IMG/VR virus record: IMGVR_UViG_2690316278_000016
DNA from: a virus
Lineage: Duplodnaviria; Heunggongvirae; Uroviricota; Caudoviricetes
Reading direction: 5' to 3' (one strand)
Length of the DNA stretch: 28,120 bases
Shown: piece after piece, positions 9,131-28,120 of the stretch
Layout of the letters: each line of letters opens with the position of its first letter
How positions within the stretch are numbered: the stretch's first letter is position 1
Notes under the pieces: model-generated
What the model was told of the DNA's origin: nothing
What the model saw: the letters and a program-made list of their open reading frames with translations, nothing else
The model's database searches: none
Position numbers and translations under genes: made by a program

Positions 9131-10165
9131 TCAGCCGTTGTCAGTGTCCAGTGAGTAGTTTTTAAAGCGGATGACCTCCTGACCGAGCCAGCCGTTTATC
9201 TCGCGGATCCTGTCCTGTAACGGGATAAGCTCATTGCGGACAAAGACCTTTGCCACTTTCTCAATATCACCCAGCGACCCGACGTTCTCCGGCTTGCCCC
9301 CCATCAACTGAAAGGGGATGCGGTGCGCGTCCAGCAGGTCAGCGGCGCTGGCTTTTTTGATATTAAAAAAATCGTCCTTCGTTGCCACTTCACTGAGCGG
9401 GATAATTTTAATGCCGTCGGCTTTCCCCTGTGGGGCATAGAGAAACAGATTTTTAAAGTTATTGCGGCCTTTCGACTTAACCATGTTTTCGCGAAGCATT
9501 TCGATATCGTTGCGATCCTGCACGGCATCGGTGACGTACATGATGTATCCGGCATGTGCGCCGTTTTCGTAATACTTGCGGCGGAACAGCGTGGCCGACT
9601 CATTCAGCCATGCAGAGTTAAGGGCGCTGAGATATTCCGGCAGGCCGTACAGCTCCTGATTAATATCAGGCTCCAGCAGGTGAAACACGGAGCCGGGCGC
9701 GAAGGCTGTCGGCTCGTTGAAGGACGGCACCCACCAGTAAACATCCTCCTCCACGCCACGACGGGTATATTTGGCCGGTGAGGTTTCCAGTCTGATGACC
9801 TTACCGGTGGTGCTGTAACGCTTTTCCAGAAACGCATTACCGAACACCAGAAAATCCAGCACAAAACGGCTGAAATCCTGCTGGGAAAGCCACGGGTGCG
9901 GGATAAACGTTGAAGCCAGAATATTACGTTTGACGTAAATCGGTGAGCTGTGATGCACGGCAGCACGCAGGCTTTTTGCCAGACCGGTAAAGCTGACCGG
10001 CGGCTCATACCATCTGCCGTTACTGATGCACTCGACGTAATCCAGAATGTCACGGCGGTCGAGTACCGGCACCGGCTCACCAAAGGTGAATGCTTCCATT
10101 TTCGGGGCGCTGGCGGTGATTGTTTTTGCCGCAGGTCGCGGTGTTTTCCCTTTTTTCTTGCTCAT
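9131..10165 (-). CDS. Q: Portal protein (P2 gpQ-like)
   Basis: 344-aa ORF, same length as P2 Q, immediately downstream of the terminase with a TGATG stop/start overlap. Confidence 0.88.
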   Translation of the reverse strand: MSKKKGKTPRPAAKTITASAPKMEAFTFGEPVPVLDRRDILDYVECISNGRWYEPPVSFTGLAKSLRAAVHHSSPIYVKRNILASTFIPHPWLSQQDFSRFVLDFLVFGNAFLEKRYSTTGKVIRLETSPAKYTRRGVEEDVYWWVPSFNEPTAFAPGSVFHLLEPDINQELYGLPEYLSALNSAWLNESATLFRRKYYENGAHAGYIMYVTDAVQDRNDIEMLRENMVKSKGRNNFKNLFLYAPQGKADGIKIIPLSEVATKDDFFNIKKASAADLLDAHRIPFQLMGGKPENVGSLGDIEKVAKVFVRNELIPLQDRIREINGWLGQEVIRFKNYSLDTDNG

Positions 10166-12110: not shown

Positions 12111-12965
12111 ATGGCAAAAAAAGTCTCAAAATTCTTTCGTATCGGCGTTGAGGGTGACACCTGTGACGGGCGTGTCATCAGTGCGCAGGATATTCAGGAA
12201 ATGGCCGAAACCTTTGACCCGCGTGTCTATGGTTGCCGCATTAACCTGGAACATCTGCGCGGCATCCTGCCTGACGGTATTTTTAAGCGTTATGGCGATG
12301 TGGCCGAACTGAAGGCCGAAAAGATTGACGATGATTCGGCGCTGAAAGGCAAATGGGCGCTGTTTGCGAAAATCACCCCGACCGATGACCTTATCGCGAT
12401 GAACAAGGCCGCGCAGAAGGTCTACACCTCAATGGAAATTCAGCCGAACTTTGCCAACACCGGCAAATGTTATCTGGTGGGTCTGGCCGTCACCGATGAC
12501 CCGGCAAGCCTCGGCACGGAATACCTGGAATTCTGCCGCACGGCAAAACACAACCCCCTGAACCGCTTCAAATTAAGCCCTGAAAACCTGATTTCAGTGG
12601 CAACGCCTGTTGAGCTGGAATTTGAAGACCTGCCTGAAACCGTGTTCACCGCCCTGACCGAAAAGGTGAAATCCATTTTTGGCCGCAAACAGGCCAGCGA
12701 TGATGCCCGTCTGAATGACGTGCATGAAGCGGTGACCGCTGTTGCTGAACATGTGCAGGAAAAACTGAGCGCCACTGAGCAGCGCCTCGCTGAGATGGAA
12801 ACCGCCTTTTCTGCACTTAAGCAGGAGGTGACTGACAGGGCGGATGAAACCAGCCAGGCATTCACCCGCCTGAAAAACAGTCTCGACCACACCGAAAGTC
12901 TGACCCAGCAGCGCCGCAGCAAGGCCACCGGTGGTGGCGGTGACGCCCTGATGACGAACTGCTGA
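12111..12965 (+). CDS. O: Capsid scaffolding protein (P2 gpO-like)
   Basis: ATG at 12111 (MAKKVSKFF...), about 284 aa, first gene of the rightward late operon. Confidence 0.85.
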   Translation: MAKKVSKFFRIGVEGDTCDGRVISAQDIQEMAETFDPRVYGCRINLEHLRGILPDGIFKRYGDVAELKAEKIDDDSALKGKWALFAKITPTDDLIAMNKAAQKVYTSMEIQPNFANTGKCYLVGLAVTDDPASLGTEYLEFCRTAKHNPLNRFKLSPENLISVATPVELEFEDLPETVFTALTEKVKSIFGRKQASDDARLNDVHEAVTAVAEHVQEKLSATEQRLAEMETAFSALKQEVTDRADETSQAFTRLKNSLDHTESLTQQRRSKATGGGGDALMTNC

Positions 12966-21026: not shown

Positions 21027-21846
21027 ATGAGCACAAAATTCAGAACCGTTATCACCACTGCCGGTGCAGCAAAGCTGGCAGCGGCAACCGCACCGGGAGG
21101 GCGGAAGGTCAACATTACCACGATGGCCGTCGGGGATGGCGGTGGTAAATTGCCTGTCCCGGATGCCGGACAGACCGGGCTTATCCACGAAGTCTGGCGA
21201 CATACGCTGAACAAAATCAGCCAGGACAAACGAAACAGTAATTATATTATCGCAGAGCTGGTTATTCCGCCGGAGGTGGGCGGTTTCTGGATGCGTGAGC
21301 TTGGCCTGTACGATGATGCGGGAACGTTAATTGCCGTGGCGAACATGGCCGAAAGTTATAAGCCAGCTCTTGCCGAAGGCTCAGGGCGTTCGCAGACCTG
21401 TCGCATGGTCATCATCGTCAGCAGTGTGGCCTCGGTGGAGCTGACCATTGACACCACAACGGTGATGGCGACACAGGATTACGTTGATGACAAAATTGCA
21501 GAGCACGAACAGTCACGACGTCACCCGGACGCCTCGCTGACCGCAAAAGGTTTTACTCAGTTAAGCAGTGCGACCAACAGCACGTCTGAAACACTGGCCG
21601 CAACGCCGAAAGCGGTAAAGGCCGCCTATGACCTTGCTAACGGGAAATACACTGCACAGGACGCCACTACAGCGCGAAAAGGTCTTGTCCAGCTCAGTAG
21701 TGCCACCAACAGCACGTCTGAAACGCTTGCGGCAACGCCAAAGGCGGTTAAGACAGCGTATGACCTTGCTAACGGGAAATACACTGCACAGGACGCCACT
21801 ACAGCGCGAAAAGGTCTTGTCCAGCTAAGTAGTGCCATCAACAGCG
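21027..21846 (+). CDS. H: Tail fibre protein, 5' portion (copy 1) including phage-fibre tandem repeats; truncated at an ambiguous base
   Basis: N-terminus MSTKFRTVITTAGAAKLAAATAPGG...MAVGDGGG; repeat units ...QLSSATNSTSETLAATPKAVK...; ORF then runs into a gene-I-like 3' end after the n at 21847. Confidence 0.7.
21545..21846 (+). repeat. In-frame 132-bp (44-aa) tandem repeat, about 2.3 copies, phage tail-fibre repeat
   Basis: Unit starts at 21545, 21677 and 21809 are near-identical at DNA level; further partial copies at 22914-22993 and 23092-23218 across N-gaps. Confidence 0.8.
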
Positions 21847-21847
21847 N

Positions 21848-21893
21848 AGCAACTTACGACGGTGAAGTCATTACCATTTATCCGGACGATTAA
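21848..21893 (+). other. Remnant 3' end of a second gene-I-like ORF fused after the ambiguous base
   Basis: Encodes ATYDGEVITIYPDD-stop, paralogous to the end of gene I (AYDGDVITVYPG-stop), followed 2 nt later by a second tail-fibre start. Confidence 0.5.
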
Positions 21894-21895
21894 GC

Positions 21896-22764
21896 ATGAG
21901 TACCACAACACGAAAATTTAAAACCATTATCACCGATACGGGTGCAAAAAAATTAGCGCAGGCAACCGCGCCAGATGGGAAACCTGTCCGCCTGACACAT
22001 ATGGCCGTGGGTGACGGCGGCGGTACTTTACCCACGCCAGACAGTAAGCAGACCCGTCTTGTGCATGAGGTGTGGCGACATACCGTTAATCGCGTCACCC
22101 TGGACGCAACACATCAGAACCACATTATTGCGGAGCTGGTTATTCCTCCTGAAACGGGCGGATTCTGGATCCGGGAAATTGGTGTGTTTGATGAGCACGG
22201 CGATTTGATCGCGGTAGGCAATACTGCCGAAAGTTACAAGCCAACCGTTGCCGAAGGATCCGGACGTGCACAAACATTTCGCACCATTCTGACCGTATCC
22301 AGCACTGCCACTGTGGCGCTTACCGTGGATAACACCATGGTGATGGCCACAGTGAATTACGTGGATGACAAACTGAAAGAGCATGAACAGTCACGACGTC
22401 ACCCGGACGCCTCGCTGACCGCAAAAGGCCTTGTCCAGCTCAGCAACGCCACCAACAGCACGTCTGAAACGCTGGCAGCGACACCAAAAGCCGTTAAGGC
22501 AGTAATGGATGAAACGAACAAGAAAGCCCCATTAAACAGCCCGGCACTGACCGGAACGCCAACAACACCAACTGCGCGACAGGGAACGAATAATACCCAA
22601 ATCGCAAGCACGGCTTTCGTTATGGCTGCGATTGCCGCACTTGTAGACTCTTCGCCTGATGCACTGAACACACTGAACGAGCTGGCGGCGGCGCTGGGCA
22701 ACGACCCGAATTTTGCGACCACCATGACTAACGCGCTTGCGGGTAAGCAACCGAAAGATGCCAC
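21896..22764 (+). CDS. Tail fibre protein, 5' portion (copy 2, diverged paralogue of copy 1), truncated at an N-gap
   Basis: N-terminus MSTTTRKFKTIITDTGAKKLAQATAPDGKPVRLTHMAVGDGGG..., colinear with but clearly diverged from copy 1; same SRRHPDASLTAKGLVQLS repeat entry. Confidence 0.65.
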
Positions 22765-22775
22765 NNNNNNNNNNN

Positions 22776-25161
22776 TTCGCAGACCTGTCGCATGGTCATC
22801 ATCGTCAGCAGTGTGGCCTCGGTGGAGCTGACCATTGACACCACAACGGTGATGGCGACACAGGATTACGTTGATGACAAAATTGCAGAGCACGAACAGT
22901 CACGACGTCACCCGGACGCCTCGCTGACCGCAAAAGGCCTTGTCCAGCTCAGTAGTGCCACCAACAGCACGTCTGAAACGCTTGCGGCAACGCNNNNNNN
23001 NNNNNNNNNNNNNNNNNNNNNNNNNNNNNNNNNNNNNNNNNNNNNNNNNNNNNNNNNNNNNNNNNNNNNNNNNNNNNNNNNNNNNNNNNNNACCAACAGC
23101 ACGTCTGAAACACTGGCCGCAACGCCGAAAGCGGTAAAGGCCGCCTATGACCTTGCTAACGGGAAATACACTGCACAGGACGCCACTACAGCGCGAAAAG
23201 GTCTTGTCCAGCTCAGTANNNNNNNNNNNNNNNNNNNNNNNNNNNNNNNNNNNNNNNNNNNNNNNNNNNNNNNNNNNNNNNNNNNNNNNNNNNNNNNNNN
23301 NNNNNNNNNNNNNNNNNNNNNNNNNNNNNNNNNNNNNNNNNNNNNNNNNNNNNNNNNNNNNNNNNNNNNNNNNNNNNNNNNNNNNNNNNNNNNNNNNNNN
23401 NNNNNNNNNNNNNNNNNNNNNNNNNNNNNNNNNNNNNNNNNNNNNNNNNNNNNNNNNNNNNNNNNNNNNNNNNNNNNNNNNNNNNNNNNNNNNNNNNNNN
23501 NNNNNNNTGCCACTCTGACGGCGCTGGCGGGGCTTGCTACTGCGGCAGACAGGTTTCCGTATTTTACGGGGAATGATGTCGCCAGCCTGGCAACCCTGAC
23601 AAAAGTCGGGCGGGATATTCTTGCGAAATCGACCGTTGCCGCCGTTATCGAATACCTCGGTTTACAGGAAACGGTAAATCAGGCTTCTGGCGCATTACAG
23701 AAAAACCAGAACGGCGCAGATATTCCGGGGAAAGATACCTTCACCAAAAATATTGGTGCCTGCCGCGCATATAGCTCATGGCTGAATATTGGTGGCGATA
23801 GTCAGGTCTGGACAACCGCGCAATTTATTTCGTGGCTGGAGAGTCAGGGAGCATTTAACCATCCTTACTGGATGTGCAAAGGCTCATGGGCTTATGCAAA
23901 TAATAAGGTCATTACAGATACAGGTTGCGGAAATATTTGTCTTGCAGGTGCTGTGGTGGAAGTTATTGGCACTCGCGGCGCAATGACCATACGCGTTACC
24001 ACGCCGAGCACGTCCAGCGNNNNNNNNNNNAACGACCCGAATTTTGCGACCACCATGACTAACGCGCTTGCGGGTAAGCAACCGAAAGATGCCACCCTGA
24101 CGGCGCTGGCCGGACTTACTACTGCGGCAGGCAAGTTTCCGTATTTTACGGGGAATGATGTCGCCAGCCTGGCAACCCTGACAAAAGTCGGGCGGGATAT
24201 TCTTGCGAAATCGACCGTTGCTGCCGTTATCGAATACCTCGGTTTACGAGAACTCGGCACAAGCGGGGAGAAAATACCGTTACTCAGTACAGCGAATACC
24301 TGGACTAATCGACAAACATTCAGCGGTGGCCTTTCTGGTGAACTATCCGGCAATGCTTCTACAGCTGCAAAATTAAAAACTGCCAGGAAAATAAGCAATG
24401 TGGCTTTTGATGGTTCCTCCGATATCACATTAAAAGCAAGTCATGTTGGTGCGTTTGCCTTAGGGAAAACAGGAAGCACCGTTGCGAATGATAAAGCAGT
24501 TGGATGGAACTGGAGTAGCGGAGCCTATAACGCAACTATTAGTGGTGCATCAACGTTAATTATTCATTTTTATATGGGAGAAGGAAGTTGTCCTGCAGCT
24601 CAGTTTCGGATTAATTATAAAAATGGCGGTATTTTTTATCGTTCAGCCCGTGATGGTTATGGTTTTGAAGCCGACTGGTCCGAATTTTACACCACCAGAA
24701 AACCTTCAGCAGGAGATGTTGGTGCACTGCCGTTATCTGGTGGTCAACTGAATGGTGCACTGGGTATCGGAACATCCAGTGCTCTTGGCGGTAATTCGAT
24801 TGTATTGGGTGATAATGACACGGGCTTTAAACAAAAAGGCGATGGTAATCTGGATGTTTATGCTAATAACGTCCATGTTATGCGCTTTGTCTCCGGAAGC
24901 ATTCAAAGTAATAAAACCATAAATATTACGGGACGTGTTAATCCCTCGGATTACGGTAACTTTGATTCCCGCTATGTGAGAGATGTCAGACTTGGCACAC
25001 GAGTTGTTTAGACCATGAAGAAAGGCGTGATGTATGAAAAATCAGGCCATGTAATCACGGGGCTTGGTATTATCGGTGAAGTCGATGGTGATGATCCGGC
25101 AGTATTCAGACCAATACAAAAGTTAATTAACGGAACATGGTATAACGTATCGCAGGTATAA
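22776..25161 (+). pseudogene. H: Tail fibre mosaic: repeated blocks and two alternative C-terminal regions joined through four N-gaps; in-frame TAG at 25009-25011
   Basis: 22776-22940 duplicates 21393-21557; 23508-23660 and 24110-24250 are near-duplicates; C-terminal region ends ...RLGTRVV-TAG-TMKKGVMYEK...[17 protein letters not shown]-stop, same frame either side of the TAG. Confidence 0.55.
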
Positions 25162-25163
25162 TC

Positions 25164-25442
25164 ATGCAGCATTTAAAAAACATTGTCGCAGGTAATCCAA
25201 AAACCGTTGAACAATACCAGCTAACAAAGAATTTTGATGTTATCTGGTTATGGTCCGAAGATGGAAAAAATTGGCATGAGGAATTAAAAAACTTTCAGGA
25301 GGATACAATAAAACTGGCTTACACAGTTGAGGGAATAATTATTGCTATAGACAAGGATGTATCAGCAATTAATCCAGAAGGTTTAAGTGTCGTTGAGTTG
25401 CCTGATATTACAGCAAATCGCCGGGCTGATATTTCGGGCAAC
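25164..25442 (+). pseudogene. G: Tail fibre assembly protein (tfa, P2 gpG-like), 5' half only, truncated by IS3-family element
   Basis: N-terminus [22 protein letters not shown]...[13 protein letters not shown] is colinear with the two intact tfa paralogues downstream, then switches to transposase sequence after the n at 25444. Confidence 0.7.
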
Positions 25443-26582
25443 TNTGAAAATCAACTTTCGATCAGTGAAGGCGCTTCCCGATTATCTCTTCCTGAAGGCA
25501 CTTTAGGACAATGGGTTACCGCCGCCAGAAAAGGGCTCGGTACTCCTGGTTCCCGCACGGTGGCTGAACTGGAATCTGAAATTCTGCAACTGCGTAAGGC
25601 GTTAAATGAAGCTCGCCTTGAGCGAGATATATTAAAAAAAGCAACAGCGTATTTTGCACAGGAGTCGCTGAAAAATACGCGTTAATCGAACAATGGCGAC
25701 AACAATTTCCCATTGAAGCGATGTGTCAGGTATTTGGTGTATCCAGGAGCGGTTATTACAACTGGGTACAGCATGAACCCTCAGACAGAAAACAAAGTGA
25801 TGAGCGGCTAAAACTGGAGATTAAGGTGGCACATATCCGCACTCGCGAAACATATGGAACCCGGCGGCTCCAGACGGAGCTGGCAGAGAATGGCATCATC
25901 GTTGGTCGTGACCGACTGGCACGTCTTCGTAAGGAGCTAAGGCTACGCTGTAAGCAGAAACGCAAGTTCAGAGCGACTACGAACTCGAACCACAATCTGC
26001 CAGTTGCGCCAAATCTGCTGAACCAGACGTTCGCTCCTACAGCACCAAATCAGGTCTGGGTGGCGGACCTGACGTATGTTGCCACACAGGAGGGATGGTT
26101 GTACCTCGCTGGCATCAAAGATGTTTATACGTGCGAAATTGTCGGCTACGCCATGGGAGAGCGCATGACAAAAGAGCTGACAGGTAAAGCCCTGTTTATG
26201 GCGCTCAGGAGCCAGCGCCCACCTGCCGGGCTAATCCACCACTCTGATCGAGGTTCACAGTACTGCGCATACGATTACCGGGTCATACAGGAGCAGTCTG
26301 GTCTGAAAACATCAATGTCGCGTAAAGGTAACTGTTACGACAACGCTCCGATGGAAAGCTTCTGGGGAACGCTGAAAAATGAGAGCCTGAGCCACTATCG
26401 TTTTAATAACCGGGATGAAGCCATCTCAGTAATACGGGAATACATTGAGATTTTCTACAATCGTCAGCGTCGTCACTCTCGTCTGGGGAATATCTCCCCG
26501 GCAGCCTTCAGGGAAAAATATCATCAGATGGCTGCTTAAAAAAAGAACAAATGGTAGTGTCCGCTATTGCCAGTACACCTCA
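25443..26582 (+). mobile_element. IS3-family insertion sequence, apparently 5'-truncated (orfA lacks its first ~20-25 codons and no left inverted repeat or UTR is present)
   Basis: orfA-like frame to stop at 25683-25685 (…WVTAARKG…ILKKATAYFAQESL), A7 slippery run at 25634-25640, orfB in the -1 frame to 26539 with DDE/rve-like residues (WVADLTYV, HSDRGSQY, YDNAPMESFW); boundaries approximate. Confidence 0.75.
25634..25640 (+). promoter_or_regulatory. Programmed -1 ribosomal frameshift site (A AAA AAA) for the OrfAB transposase fusion
   Basis: Heptamer lies in the orfA frame just before the orfA stop; the -1 frame is open from here into orfB. Confidence 0.55.
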
Positions 26583-26849
26583 GAGTTTTACACCACAACC
26601 CGCAAACCCTCTGCGGGAGATGTTGGTGCATATACGCAGGCAGAATGTAACTCAAGGTTTATTACAGGTATTCGCCTTGGTGGTCTGTTATCTGTTCAGA
26701 CATGGAATGGTCCCGGATGGTCTGACAGGTCAGGTTATGTTGTTACCGGTTCCGTTAACTCAAACAGAGATGAACTAATTGATACAACTCAGGCAAGGCC
26801 AATTCAGTATTGCATTAATGGGACGTGGTATAACGCGGGGAGTATTTAA
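26583..26849 (+). pseudogene. 3' remnant of an alternative tail-fibre C-terminal (receptor-binding) domain, detached from its 5' part by the IS
   Basis: Encodes EFYTTTRKPSAGDVGA...[17 protein letters not shown]-stop, paralogous to the H C-terminus (EFYTTRKPSAGDVGA...[17 protein letters not shown]); immediately followed by a tfa gene. Confidence 0.65.
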
Positions 26850-26851
26850 CG

Positions 26852-27564
26852 ATGATGCACTTAAAAAACATTTCTGCTGGTAATCCTGAAACAAAAGAGC
26901 AATACCAGCTAACGAAACAATTTAACATCAAATGGCTTTATACAGAGGATGGGAAAAACTGGTATGAGGAACAAAAGAACTTTCAGCCTGATACGTTGAA
27001 AATGGTCTATGACCACAACGGCGTTATTATTTGTATTGAAAAGGATGTTTCAGCAATTAATCCGGAAGGCGCAAGCGTCGTTGAGGTTCCTGATATTACA
27101 GCAAATCGCCGGGCTGATATTTCAGGTAAATGGATGTTCAAAGATGGCGTAGTGATAAAGCGAACTTATACCGGGGAAGAGCAGAGGCAACAAGCGGAAA
27201 ATGAAAAGCAAAGCCTGCTACAGCTNNNNNNNNNNNNNNNNNNNNNNNNNNNNNNNNNNNNNNNNNNNNNNNNNNNNNNNNNNNNNNNNNNNNNNNNNNN
27301 NNNNNNNNNNNNNNNNNNNNNNNNNNNNNNNNNNNNNNNNNNNNNNATACCGGGGAAGAGCAGAGGCAACAAGCGGAAAATGAAAAGCAAAGCCTGCTAC
27401 AGCTCGTCAGGGATAAAACCCAGCTATGGGACTCACAGCTACGGCTGGGCATTATTTCCGACGAGAATAAACAAAAATTAACCGAGTGGATGCTCTATGC
27501 GCAGAAGGTCGAATCCACAGACACCTCCAGCCTGCCAGTAACGTTTCCCGAACAACCAGAATGA
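26852..27564 (+). CDS. Tail fibre assembly protein (tfa paralogue 2), containing an N-gap with duplicated flanks
   Basis: N-terminus [22 protein letters not shown]...[20 protein letters not shown]; gap at 27226-27346 is flanked by an identical ~59-bp sequence on both sides. Confidence 0.75.
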
Positions 27565-27567
27565 AAC

Positions 27568-27594
27568 AAGGCCCGATATCGGGCCTTAATTTTT
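27568..27594. terminator. Palindromic hairpin with T-run between convergent tfa genes (bidirectional terminator)
   Basis: AAGGCCCGATATCGGGCCTT perfect palindrome at 27568-27587 followed by AATTTTT. Confidence 0.6.
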
Positions 27595-28120
27595 ACTCAG
27601 GCTTTTGTGGCCATTCTGGCTTTGCCGTATCCACACGGCTGACCAGAACACTGTAGCGTTCCCATGCTTCCAGTCGTGTGCGTTCCTCGTCCGTCGCCAT
27701 ATTCAGCCTGACAGCGCGTTCCAGCGGCTGGATGACTGATTCAGCTTCGGAAAGCAATGCGGCCTTTTGTGATTCGGCCTGTTGTTGCTGTTCGTCAGCC
27801 GTATAAATCCGTTTAACCACAGCTCCGTCCTTAAACATCCACTTACCGGAATCATCAGCACGACGATTAGCTGTAATATCAGGAACCTCAACGACGCTAT
27901 AACCTTCAGGGTTAAGCGTGGAGGCATCTTTGGTGATGGCGACAATAATATTATTTGCATCGTAAACAATCTTTATTGTGTCTGGCTGAAAGTTCTTCAC
28001 TTCCTCATACCAGTTTTTTCCGTCCTCAGAGTAAAGCCAGATGACTCCGTGCTTCTTTGTTAACTCATACTGCTCCACTGTTTTAGCATTACCTGCTTTT
28101 ATGTTCTTTAAGTGCATCAT
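27593..28120 (-). CDS. Tail fibre assembly protein (tfa paralogue 3), opposite strand, complete
   Basis: 175 aa, [22 protein letters not shown]...[20 protein letters not shown]; start codon at the last 3 bases of the window. Confidence 0.8.

Follow-up and report, generated by a model that had tools for sequence, protein, structure and literature searches.

The window analysed here is a stretch of 28,120 nucleotides from a virus of the class Caudoviricetes (IMG/VR record IMGVR_UViG_2690316278_000016). Within it a tail-fibre reading frame, ORF 22792..25011 on the plus strand, ends at an amber codon and then continues open in the same frame. The question raised by this locus is whether the stop is a nonsense mutation that truncates the fibre, a sequencing error, or a site that is suppressed or read through; the original prediction had left all three options standing. 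Here we present a description of the amber codon and its surroundings, together with the allele's distribution, the prophage to which it belongs and the explanation which we consider by far the best.

The amber codon and its reading frame

In the fibre frame the TAG occupies positions 25009-25011 (+) and is followed by 49 sense codons (25012-25158) and a TAA at 25159-25161, which confirms the coordinates and the frame first proposed. An open frame of 49 codons is unremarkable on its own, as its chance is (61/64)^49, or about 0.1; what counts is the homology of those codons. The tip encoded by the extension aligns over about 80 residues with the tip of the second fibre fragment of the window (26445..26849), and the suggested paralogy of the two C-termini is thus borne out. 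Peptides across or downstream of the stop in the fibre frame are MKKGVMYEK and SGHVITGLGIIGEVDGDDPAVFRPIQK.

Upstream of the stop, contiguous fibre sequence (24031..25008, +) begins with the final part of the constant region (24031-24226), followed by a crossover site and the variable cassette. The orphaned C-terminal 49 codons with their TAA (25012..25161, +) encode the fibre tip and correspond approximately to residues 453-504 of Mu gpS. In Shigella sonnei the two sides of the stop are annotated as separate products: a 203-aa protein (24400-25011, +), identical to Q3Z104_SHISS, and a 48-aa ORF that starts at the ATG at 25015 (25015..25161, +) and is called 'putative tail fiber protein (GpH)'. 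The 5' part of the cognate tfa gene (25164..25443, +) starts 2 nt after the natural stop of the fibre. At the equivalent position in loci L004-L013 the tfa product is an intact protein of 177 aa with the domain PF02413 (Caudo_TAP), so that a cognate Caudo_TAP gene lies directly 3' of the fibre cassette.

Assembly of the window

A P2-like prophage makes up most of the window; as far as about position 21846 it is colinear with ordinary prophages of this type. In ordinary P2-like prophages gpI, gpH, gpG and the sheath gene follow each other within about 3-5 kb; in the window the region extends over 7 kb and consists of fibre, tfa and IS fragments between runs of N (21847, 22765-22775, 22994-23091, 23219-23507, 24020-24030, 25444 and 27226-27346). 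The pieces between these runs map to different fibre loci. ORF 22792..25011 crosses the runs at 22994-23091, 23219-23507 and 24020-24030, and this 'tail-fibre ORF' of 739 aa is a chimera created by the scaffold; the fibre region of the window is a patchwork, and it would be a mistake to take it for a single gene. Around the stop, sequence without gaps is limited to 24031-25443, which is 100% identical over its 1413 nt to the finished chromosome CP044151.1 (locus L011). Because the amber codon lies inside this contiguous piece, the faults of the scaffold leave it unaffected. The identity ends at 25443, and the single N at 25444, where tfa meets IS600, marks a join of the scaffold and no insertion site. 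Since N gaps separate the cassette from the P2-like prophage, it cannot be assigned to that prophage; the cassette belongs to the invertible segment of a lambdoid prophage.

Two gpH-like ORFs of 288 aa and 311 aa within 21027-28120 are likewise chimeric or truncated by scaffold joins.

The codon in intact homologues

By megablast of positions 24690-25200 the cassette was found in 888 of 5426 complete Escherichia coli genomes and in 50 phage records, mainly of P2-like phages, Yersinia phage L-413C among them. Nine intact homologues were compared: two lambdoid E. coli prophages (NCTC86 and OZ040035), one P2-like E. coli prophage (Ecol_867) and six phages, namely L-413C (gpH), vB_EcoM-569R9, YpM_39, 503458, P2_AC1 and YpM_22. 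In DNA and protein alignments all nine carry glutamine at the aligned codon, encoded by CAG in eight cases and by CAA in one; with the window's own paralogue, which also has CAG, the count becomes nine CAG and one CAA. The expectation that the intact protein ran through this position is therefore upheld, and the sense codon in question is that for glutamine.

The piece 24031-25443 shares 99.2% identity with the stf gene of E. coli NCTC86, and the bases flanking the amber codon are otherwise identical to that strain. At the protein level the 49 codons past the stop match the C-terminus of the intact NCTC86 and OZ040035 fibres exactly and are near-identical to gpH of Yersinia phage L-413C; the downstream 150 nt are identical to NCTC86 and display no further decay. 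With glutamine in all nine homologues and near-identical flanking DNA, the lesion is one C>T transition that turned CAG into TAG. In every annotated example fetched the fibre CDS reaches the conserved end, 2-3 nt before tfa, and no small gene between fibre and tfa was seen in the annotated E. coli prophage and phage examples fetched. Fibres that truly end at the amber position and are followed by a separate small gene, the observation that would have spoken against an interrupted gene, occur only in S. sonnei genomes with the same allele, shared presumably by descent, and in no independent homologue. In the window the TAG stands between the body of the fibre and its conserved end (...INGTWYNV..), and the cassette is a pseudogene or truncated member of the Mu gpS / P2 gpH-type group.

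Distribution of the TAG allele

A TAG-centred 41-mer had no megablast match among the 5426 complete E. coli genomes or in the phage collection; the CAG version of the same 41-mer, serving as positive control, was found in six E. coli genomes. A TAG-containing 32-mer had no match in the GTDB representative genomes, which says little, as GTDB probably folds Shigella into the E. coli representative.

An exact-sequence look-up lists the 48-aa ORF (25015..25161) in 2201 blocks of the assembly collection. The ten loci returned for it have a common local gene layout (10/10), and in all ten, as fetched, TAG stands at the homologous codon. One of them, HE616528.1, is S. sonnei 53G, a strain of lineage II; strain Ss046 represents lineage III. 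Both split products, of 48 aa and 203 aa, are exact database proteins, each present on at least 1000 contigs, and their database names come from S. sonnei, including A0A0I5G696_SHISO and Q3Z104_SHISS (Ss046), the latter listed as 'putative bacteriophage tail protein [Shigella sonnei Ss046]'. Ten loci out of ten with TAG, and split products on that many contigs, exclude a sequencing error: the TAG is a real allele carried throughout S. sonnei.

Both split ORFs are already part of S. sonnei reference annotations, and the kind of event is well known, yet the databases give no hint that the two fragments are halves of one fibre. Short ORFs annotated as "hypothetical" or "GpH" beside tfa genes can thus be orphaned fibre tips. 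As S. sonnei has the allele and none of the 5426 complete E. coli genomes does, it is also a clean lineage marker.

The invertible fibre segment

In the S. sonnei records the cassette lies inside a lambdoid prophage (gpJ, Lom, Stf, Tfa) that adjoins the trp operon, as in E. coli NCTC86. The segment is ordered as constant fibre part, variable tip and tfa, then a second tfa and tip on the opposite strand, and a remnant of the resolvase family. At the constant/variable junction of the fibre gene a 26-bp crossover site of the Gin/Pin type, TTATCGAATACCTCGGTTTACGAGAA, is located at 24227..24252 (+); we take it to resemble the gix/pix consensus. A further 26-bp site of this type lies within a fibre gene at window positions 23645-23670.

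In strain 53G (locus L007) two such sites, TTATCTAAAACCTCGGTTTACGAGAA at 9213-9238 (+) and TTATCGAATACCTCGGTTTACAGGAA at 12129-12154 (-), are inverted relative to each other and bound the segment. Each differs at two positions, and the site shared by the window and L011 is an exact hybrid, with the left half of one 53G site and the right half of the other, which is the signature of a site-specific inversion at the central bases. The breakpoint of the rearrangement as delimited by BLAST falls at window positions 24223-24247; mismatches between the window and the 53G-type loci are found at 24226, 24232 and 24235 only, and the gene order is inverted between L007 and L011. Both orientations thus exist, with reciprocal exchange of half-sites, and the segment has been inverted by site-specific recombination within S. 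sonnei. A crossover at the conserved 'TTRKPSAGDVGA' motif near 24700, considered as a candidate, proved wrong, as the BLAST breakpoints and the site search both give 24227-24252.

The adjacent invertase is represented by a 60-aa fragment with the domain PF00239 (Resolvase) only, and the NCTC86 gene is annotated as 'recombinase family protein, incomplete'. With this remnant alone, the inversion would imply that an invertase acted in trans.

The window and L011 have the amber cassette fused to the constant part, and the called product has 875 aa. The orientation found in 53G leaves the amber cassette silent. Six of the ten loci retain no more than a 104-aa remnant of the constant fibre part, beside IS600.

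In NCTC86 and OZ040035 the two alternative cassettes form an inverted repeat of 776 nt that ends 14 nt before the amber position. Window positions 24223-24995 correspond to 8528-7753 (minus strand) of locus L001, and the repeat has 97.7-98.1% identity to the window. Between the two NCTC86 cassettes the identity over the 776 nt is 97.7%; divergence sets in only past window position 24995, so that the difference between the two fibre versions is confined to the last 55-62 or so codons. Judged from this pattern, the last 55 or so codons presumably set the receptor specificity, and it is essentially the differing part that the stop removes.

Decay of the prophage

The lambdoid prophage beside trp is plainly defective and decaying in S. 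sonnei. Its gpJ gene is split into ORFs of 547 aa and 513 aa by a deletion of 22 nt relative to NCTC86, where gpJ is annotated as a single intact CDS. Copies of IS1 and IS600 interrupt the prophage, and its invertase is truncated. The amber codon differs by one base from the sense codon of close relatives, is inherited and is accompanied by further lesions, as is typical of a nonsense pseudogene in a decaying prophage.

The gpJ deletion, at about 4960-4975 of L011, lies between short direct repeats and is also present in L007, L009 and L012.

Consequence for the fibre

The fibre tip matches the C-terminus of Mu tail fibre protein S (PDB 5YVQ) with E=7e-17 (query 82-157), and the Pfam family gp37_C is matched with 31.5 bits against a cut-off of 22.5; the cassette thus shows C-terminal homology to characterised fibres of the Mu gpS / P2 gpH type. 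The amber codon aligns with residue 452 of the 504 residues of Mu gpS, and the lost segment corresponds to about the last 52 residues. According to a paper that cites 5YVQ, the distal moiety of the Mu fibre is where TfaMu binds, and correct assembly and trimerisation are ensured in this way. A fibre truncated at the amber position would be expected to lose its function, being unable to form a working tip.

Origin of the amber codon and alternative explanations

The locus is very probably explained by an inherited nonsense mutation in one of two alternative C-terminal cassettes of the side-tail-fibre gene of a defective S. sonnei lambdoid prophage. A C>T transition changed the glutamine codon CAG into TAG in one cassette of the Gin/Pin-type invertible segment. 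In the orientation found in the window the amber cassette is joined to the constant part, and translation should end 50 codons early, giving a product of 875 aa instead of about 925 aa that would be missing its distal tip. By homology to Mu gpS, the lost region would be part of the distal moiety bound by the Tfa chaperone. The 49 downstream codons would then be an untranslated remnant, too young for decay, and the mutation may have become fixed neutrally in a prophage that was already, or was soon to be, defective. Meaningful readthrough of the TAG would not be expected. The intact 150 nt downstream fit a recent mutation in a young clone and would also be expected if the tip were still selected; the perfectly preserved 49 codons agree with the youth of the S. 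sonnei clone and need no selection to explain them.

That the true base at 25009 is a C, miscalled in an N-rich draft, is the least credible of the alternatives. The window is indeed a low-quality scaffold with nine runs of N and with chimeric joins right around the fibre region, but the piece that holds the TAG is 100% identical to a finished chromosome, and the same codon recurs in ten of ten independent records and, as split proteins, on at least 1000 contigs. Only slightly less improbable is a functional recoding in which the UAG is read through or suppressed and a full-length fibre persists, possibly alongside the truncated form. The perfectly intact 49 codons would suit it. A supE-type tRNA(Gln, CUA) converts a CAG-derived amber codon back to glutamine, so that CAG>TAG is the very class of amber that such a suppressor would restore to wild type. 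The base after the UAG is A, which in E. coli is reportedly not the strongest termination context, and some basal readthrough is conceivable. Against recoding, the stop is conserved in none of the nine intact homologues and is confined to the S. sonnei allele, a distribution at odds with programmed readthrough or suppression; a tRNA gene that might encode a suppressor was sought in the window and none is present; and no amber suppressors were reported for S. sonnei in the literature searched. The prophage moreover carries other inactivating lesions, so that selection for a working fibre is not evident, and in most of the fetched S. sonnei genomes the cassette is oriented so that it is not expressed, or the constant region is destroyed. 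Of the options initially offered, the nonsense mutation that truncates the fibre is thus retained; the sequencing error is excluded, and the suppression or readthrough finds no support.

A split gene is about as improbable as recoding. Here the 48-aa ORF would be translated by termination and reinitiation 3 nt past the stop, and its product would join the truncated fibre or Tfa non-covalently. Bacterial ribosomes can reinitiate a few nucleotides beyond a stop, the ATG two codons beyond the TAG is within that distance, and gene callers do annotate a separate CDS in S. sonnei. The ATG at 25015, however, has no Shine-Dalgarno signal above background: its anti-SD duplex energy of -2.5 kcal/mol equals the median of the window's ATGs, compared with -7.6 to -9.5 kcal/mol for three real starts of the window (tfa at 26852, gpH and gpI). 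It is, furthermore, a conserved internal methionine of intact fibres (VQTMKKG / VQTMQKG). As an independent gene the 48-aa ORF was rejected on these two grounds. Such a split occurs in no independent lineage, and a trimeric tip would be unlikely to assemble from a detached peptide of 48 aa. Were the amber codon leaky or suppressed, or the tip reinitiated, one position of the fibre switch would yield both a truncated and a full-length (or two-piece) fibre, for which we see very little likelihood; the mixture would then serve a still functional tail-like particle, and the preservation of the 49 codons would reflect selection instead of youth. Under the nonsense mutation favoured here the biological weight of the stop is small, as it would add another inactivating lesion to a cryptic prophage, in a pathogen already noted for the decay of its genes.

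Comparison with known systems

The arrangement resembles the G segment of phage Mu (S/S', U/U' and Gin, with the Pin system of e14 and the Cin system of P1 as equivalents). In both, a constant N-terminus is joined at a 26-bp site to alternative cassettes, each cassette has its own tfa and the two cassettes are oppositely oriented; as in Mu, both orientations occur, here among S. sonnei genomes together with the reciprocal hybrid sites. The tip of the amber cassette resembles Mu gpS (5YVQ), and the second tip of the window resembles Mu S' (8JU3). Unlike Mu, the S. sonnei element is a lambdoid prophage (gpJ, Lom, Stf), its invertase is a 60-aa remnant and one of its cassettes carries a premature amber codon.

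The window cassette shares 91-93% identity and the gene junction with the final 500 or so nt of gpH and the start of gpG in L-413C and other P2-like phages, whereas these phages are viable, carry CAG at the amber position and have no invertible segment. The stf and tfa genes of NCTC86 and OZ040035 occupy the same locus by trpA, have the invertible segment and the truncated recombinase and share 98.6-99.2% DNA identity with the window over 1416 nt. They differ by CAG in place of TAG and, in the case of NCTC86, by an intact gpJ, the gene that is frameshifted in S. sonnei. The decay of cryptic prophages in Shigella and the classical CAG>TAG ambers of phages offer the same features, namely a nonsense codon made by a single transition, a clonal lineage rich in IS elements and several lesions. 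The amber codon is a typical case of Shigella pseudogene decay, with nothing materially different.

Other features of the fibre region

A fragment of IS600, a member of the IS3 family, occupies positions 25445-26583 with orfB and the 3' part of orfA; it is 100% identical to S. sonnei copies and 99.9% identical to E. coli copies annotated as IS600. On its right it passes directly, with no gap, into a fragment of a fibre tip. The second cassette set (26584-28120) consists of a Mu S'-like tip (26584-26849) whose counterpart of the amber codon is CAG, a tfa gene (26852-27481) containing a run of N, and an inverted tfa gene (27593-28120, minus strand) that extends to the end of the window. It looks like part of another invertible segment, cut by IS600 on its left. 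Within 21848-22764 a second and more divergent gpI-like gene ends (...ATYDGEVITIYPDD*), and after it comes another gpH start (MSTTTRKFKTIITDTGAKK...). This points to an additional P2-like prophage in the source genome, one whose contig has been worked into the scaffold.
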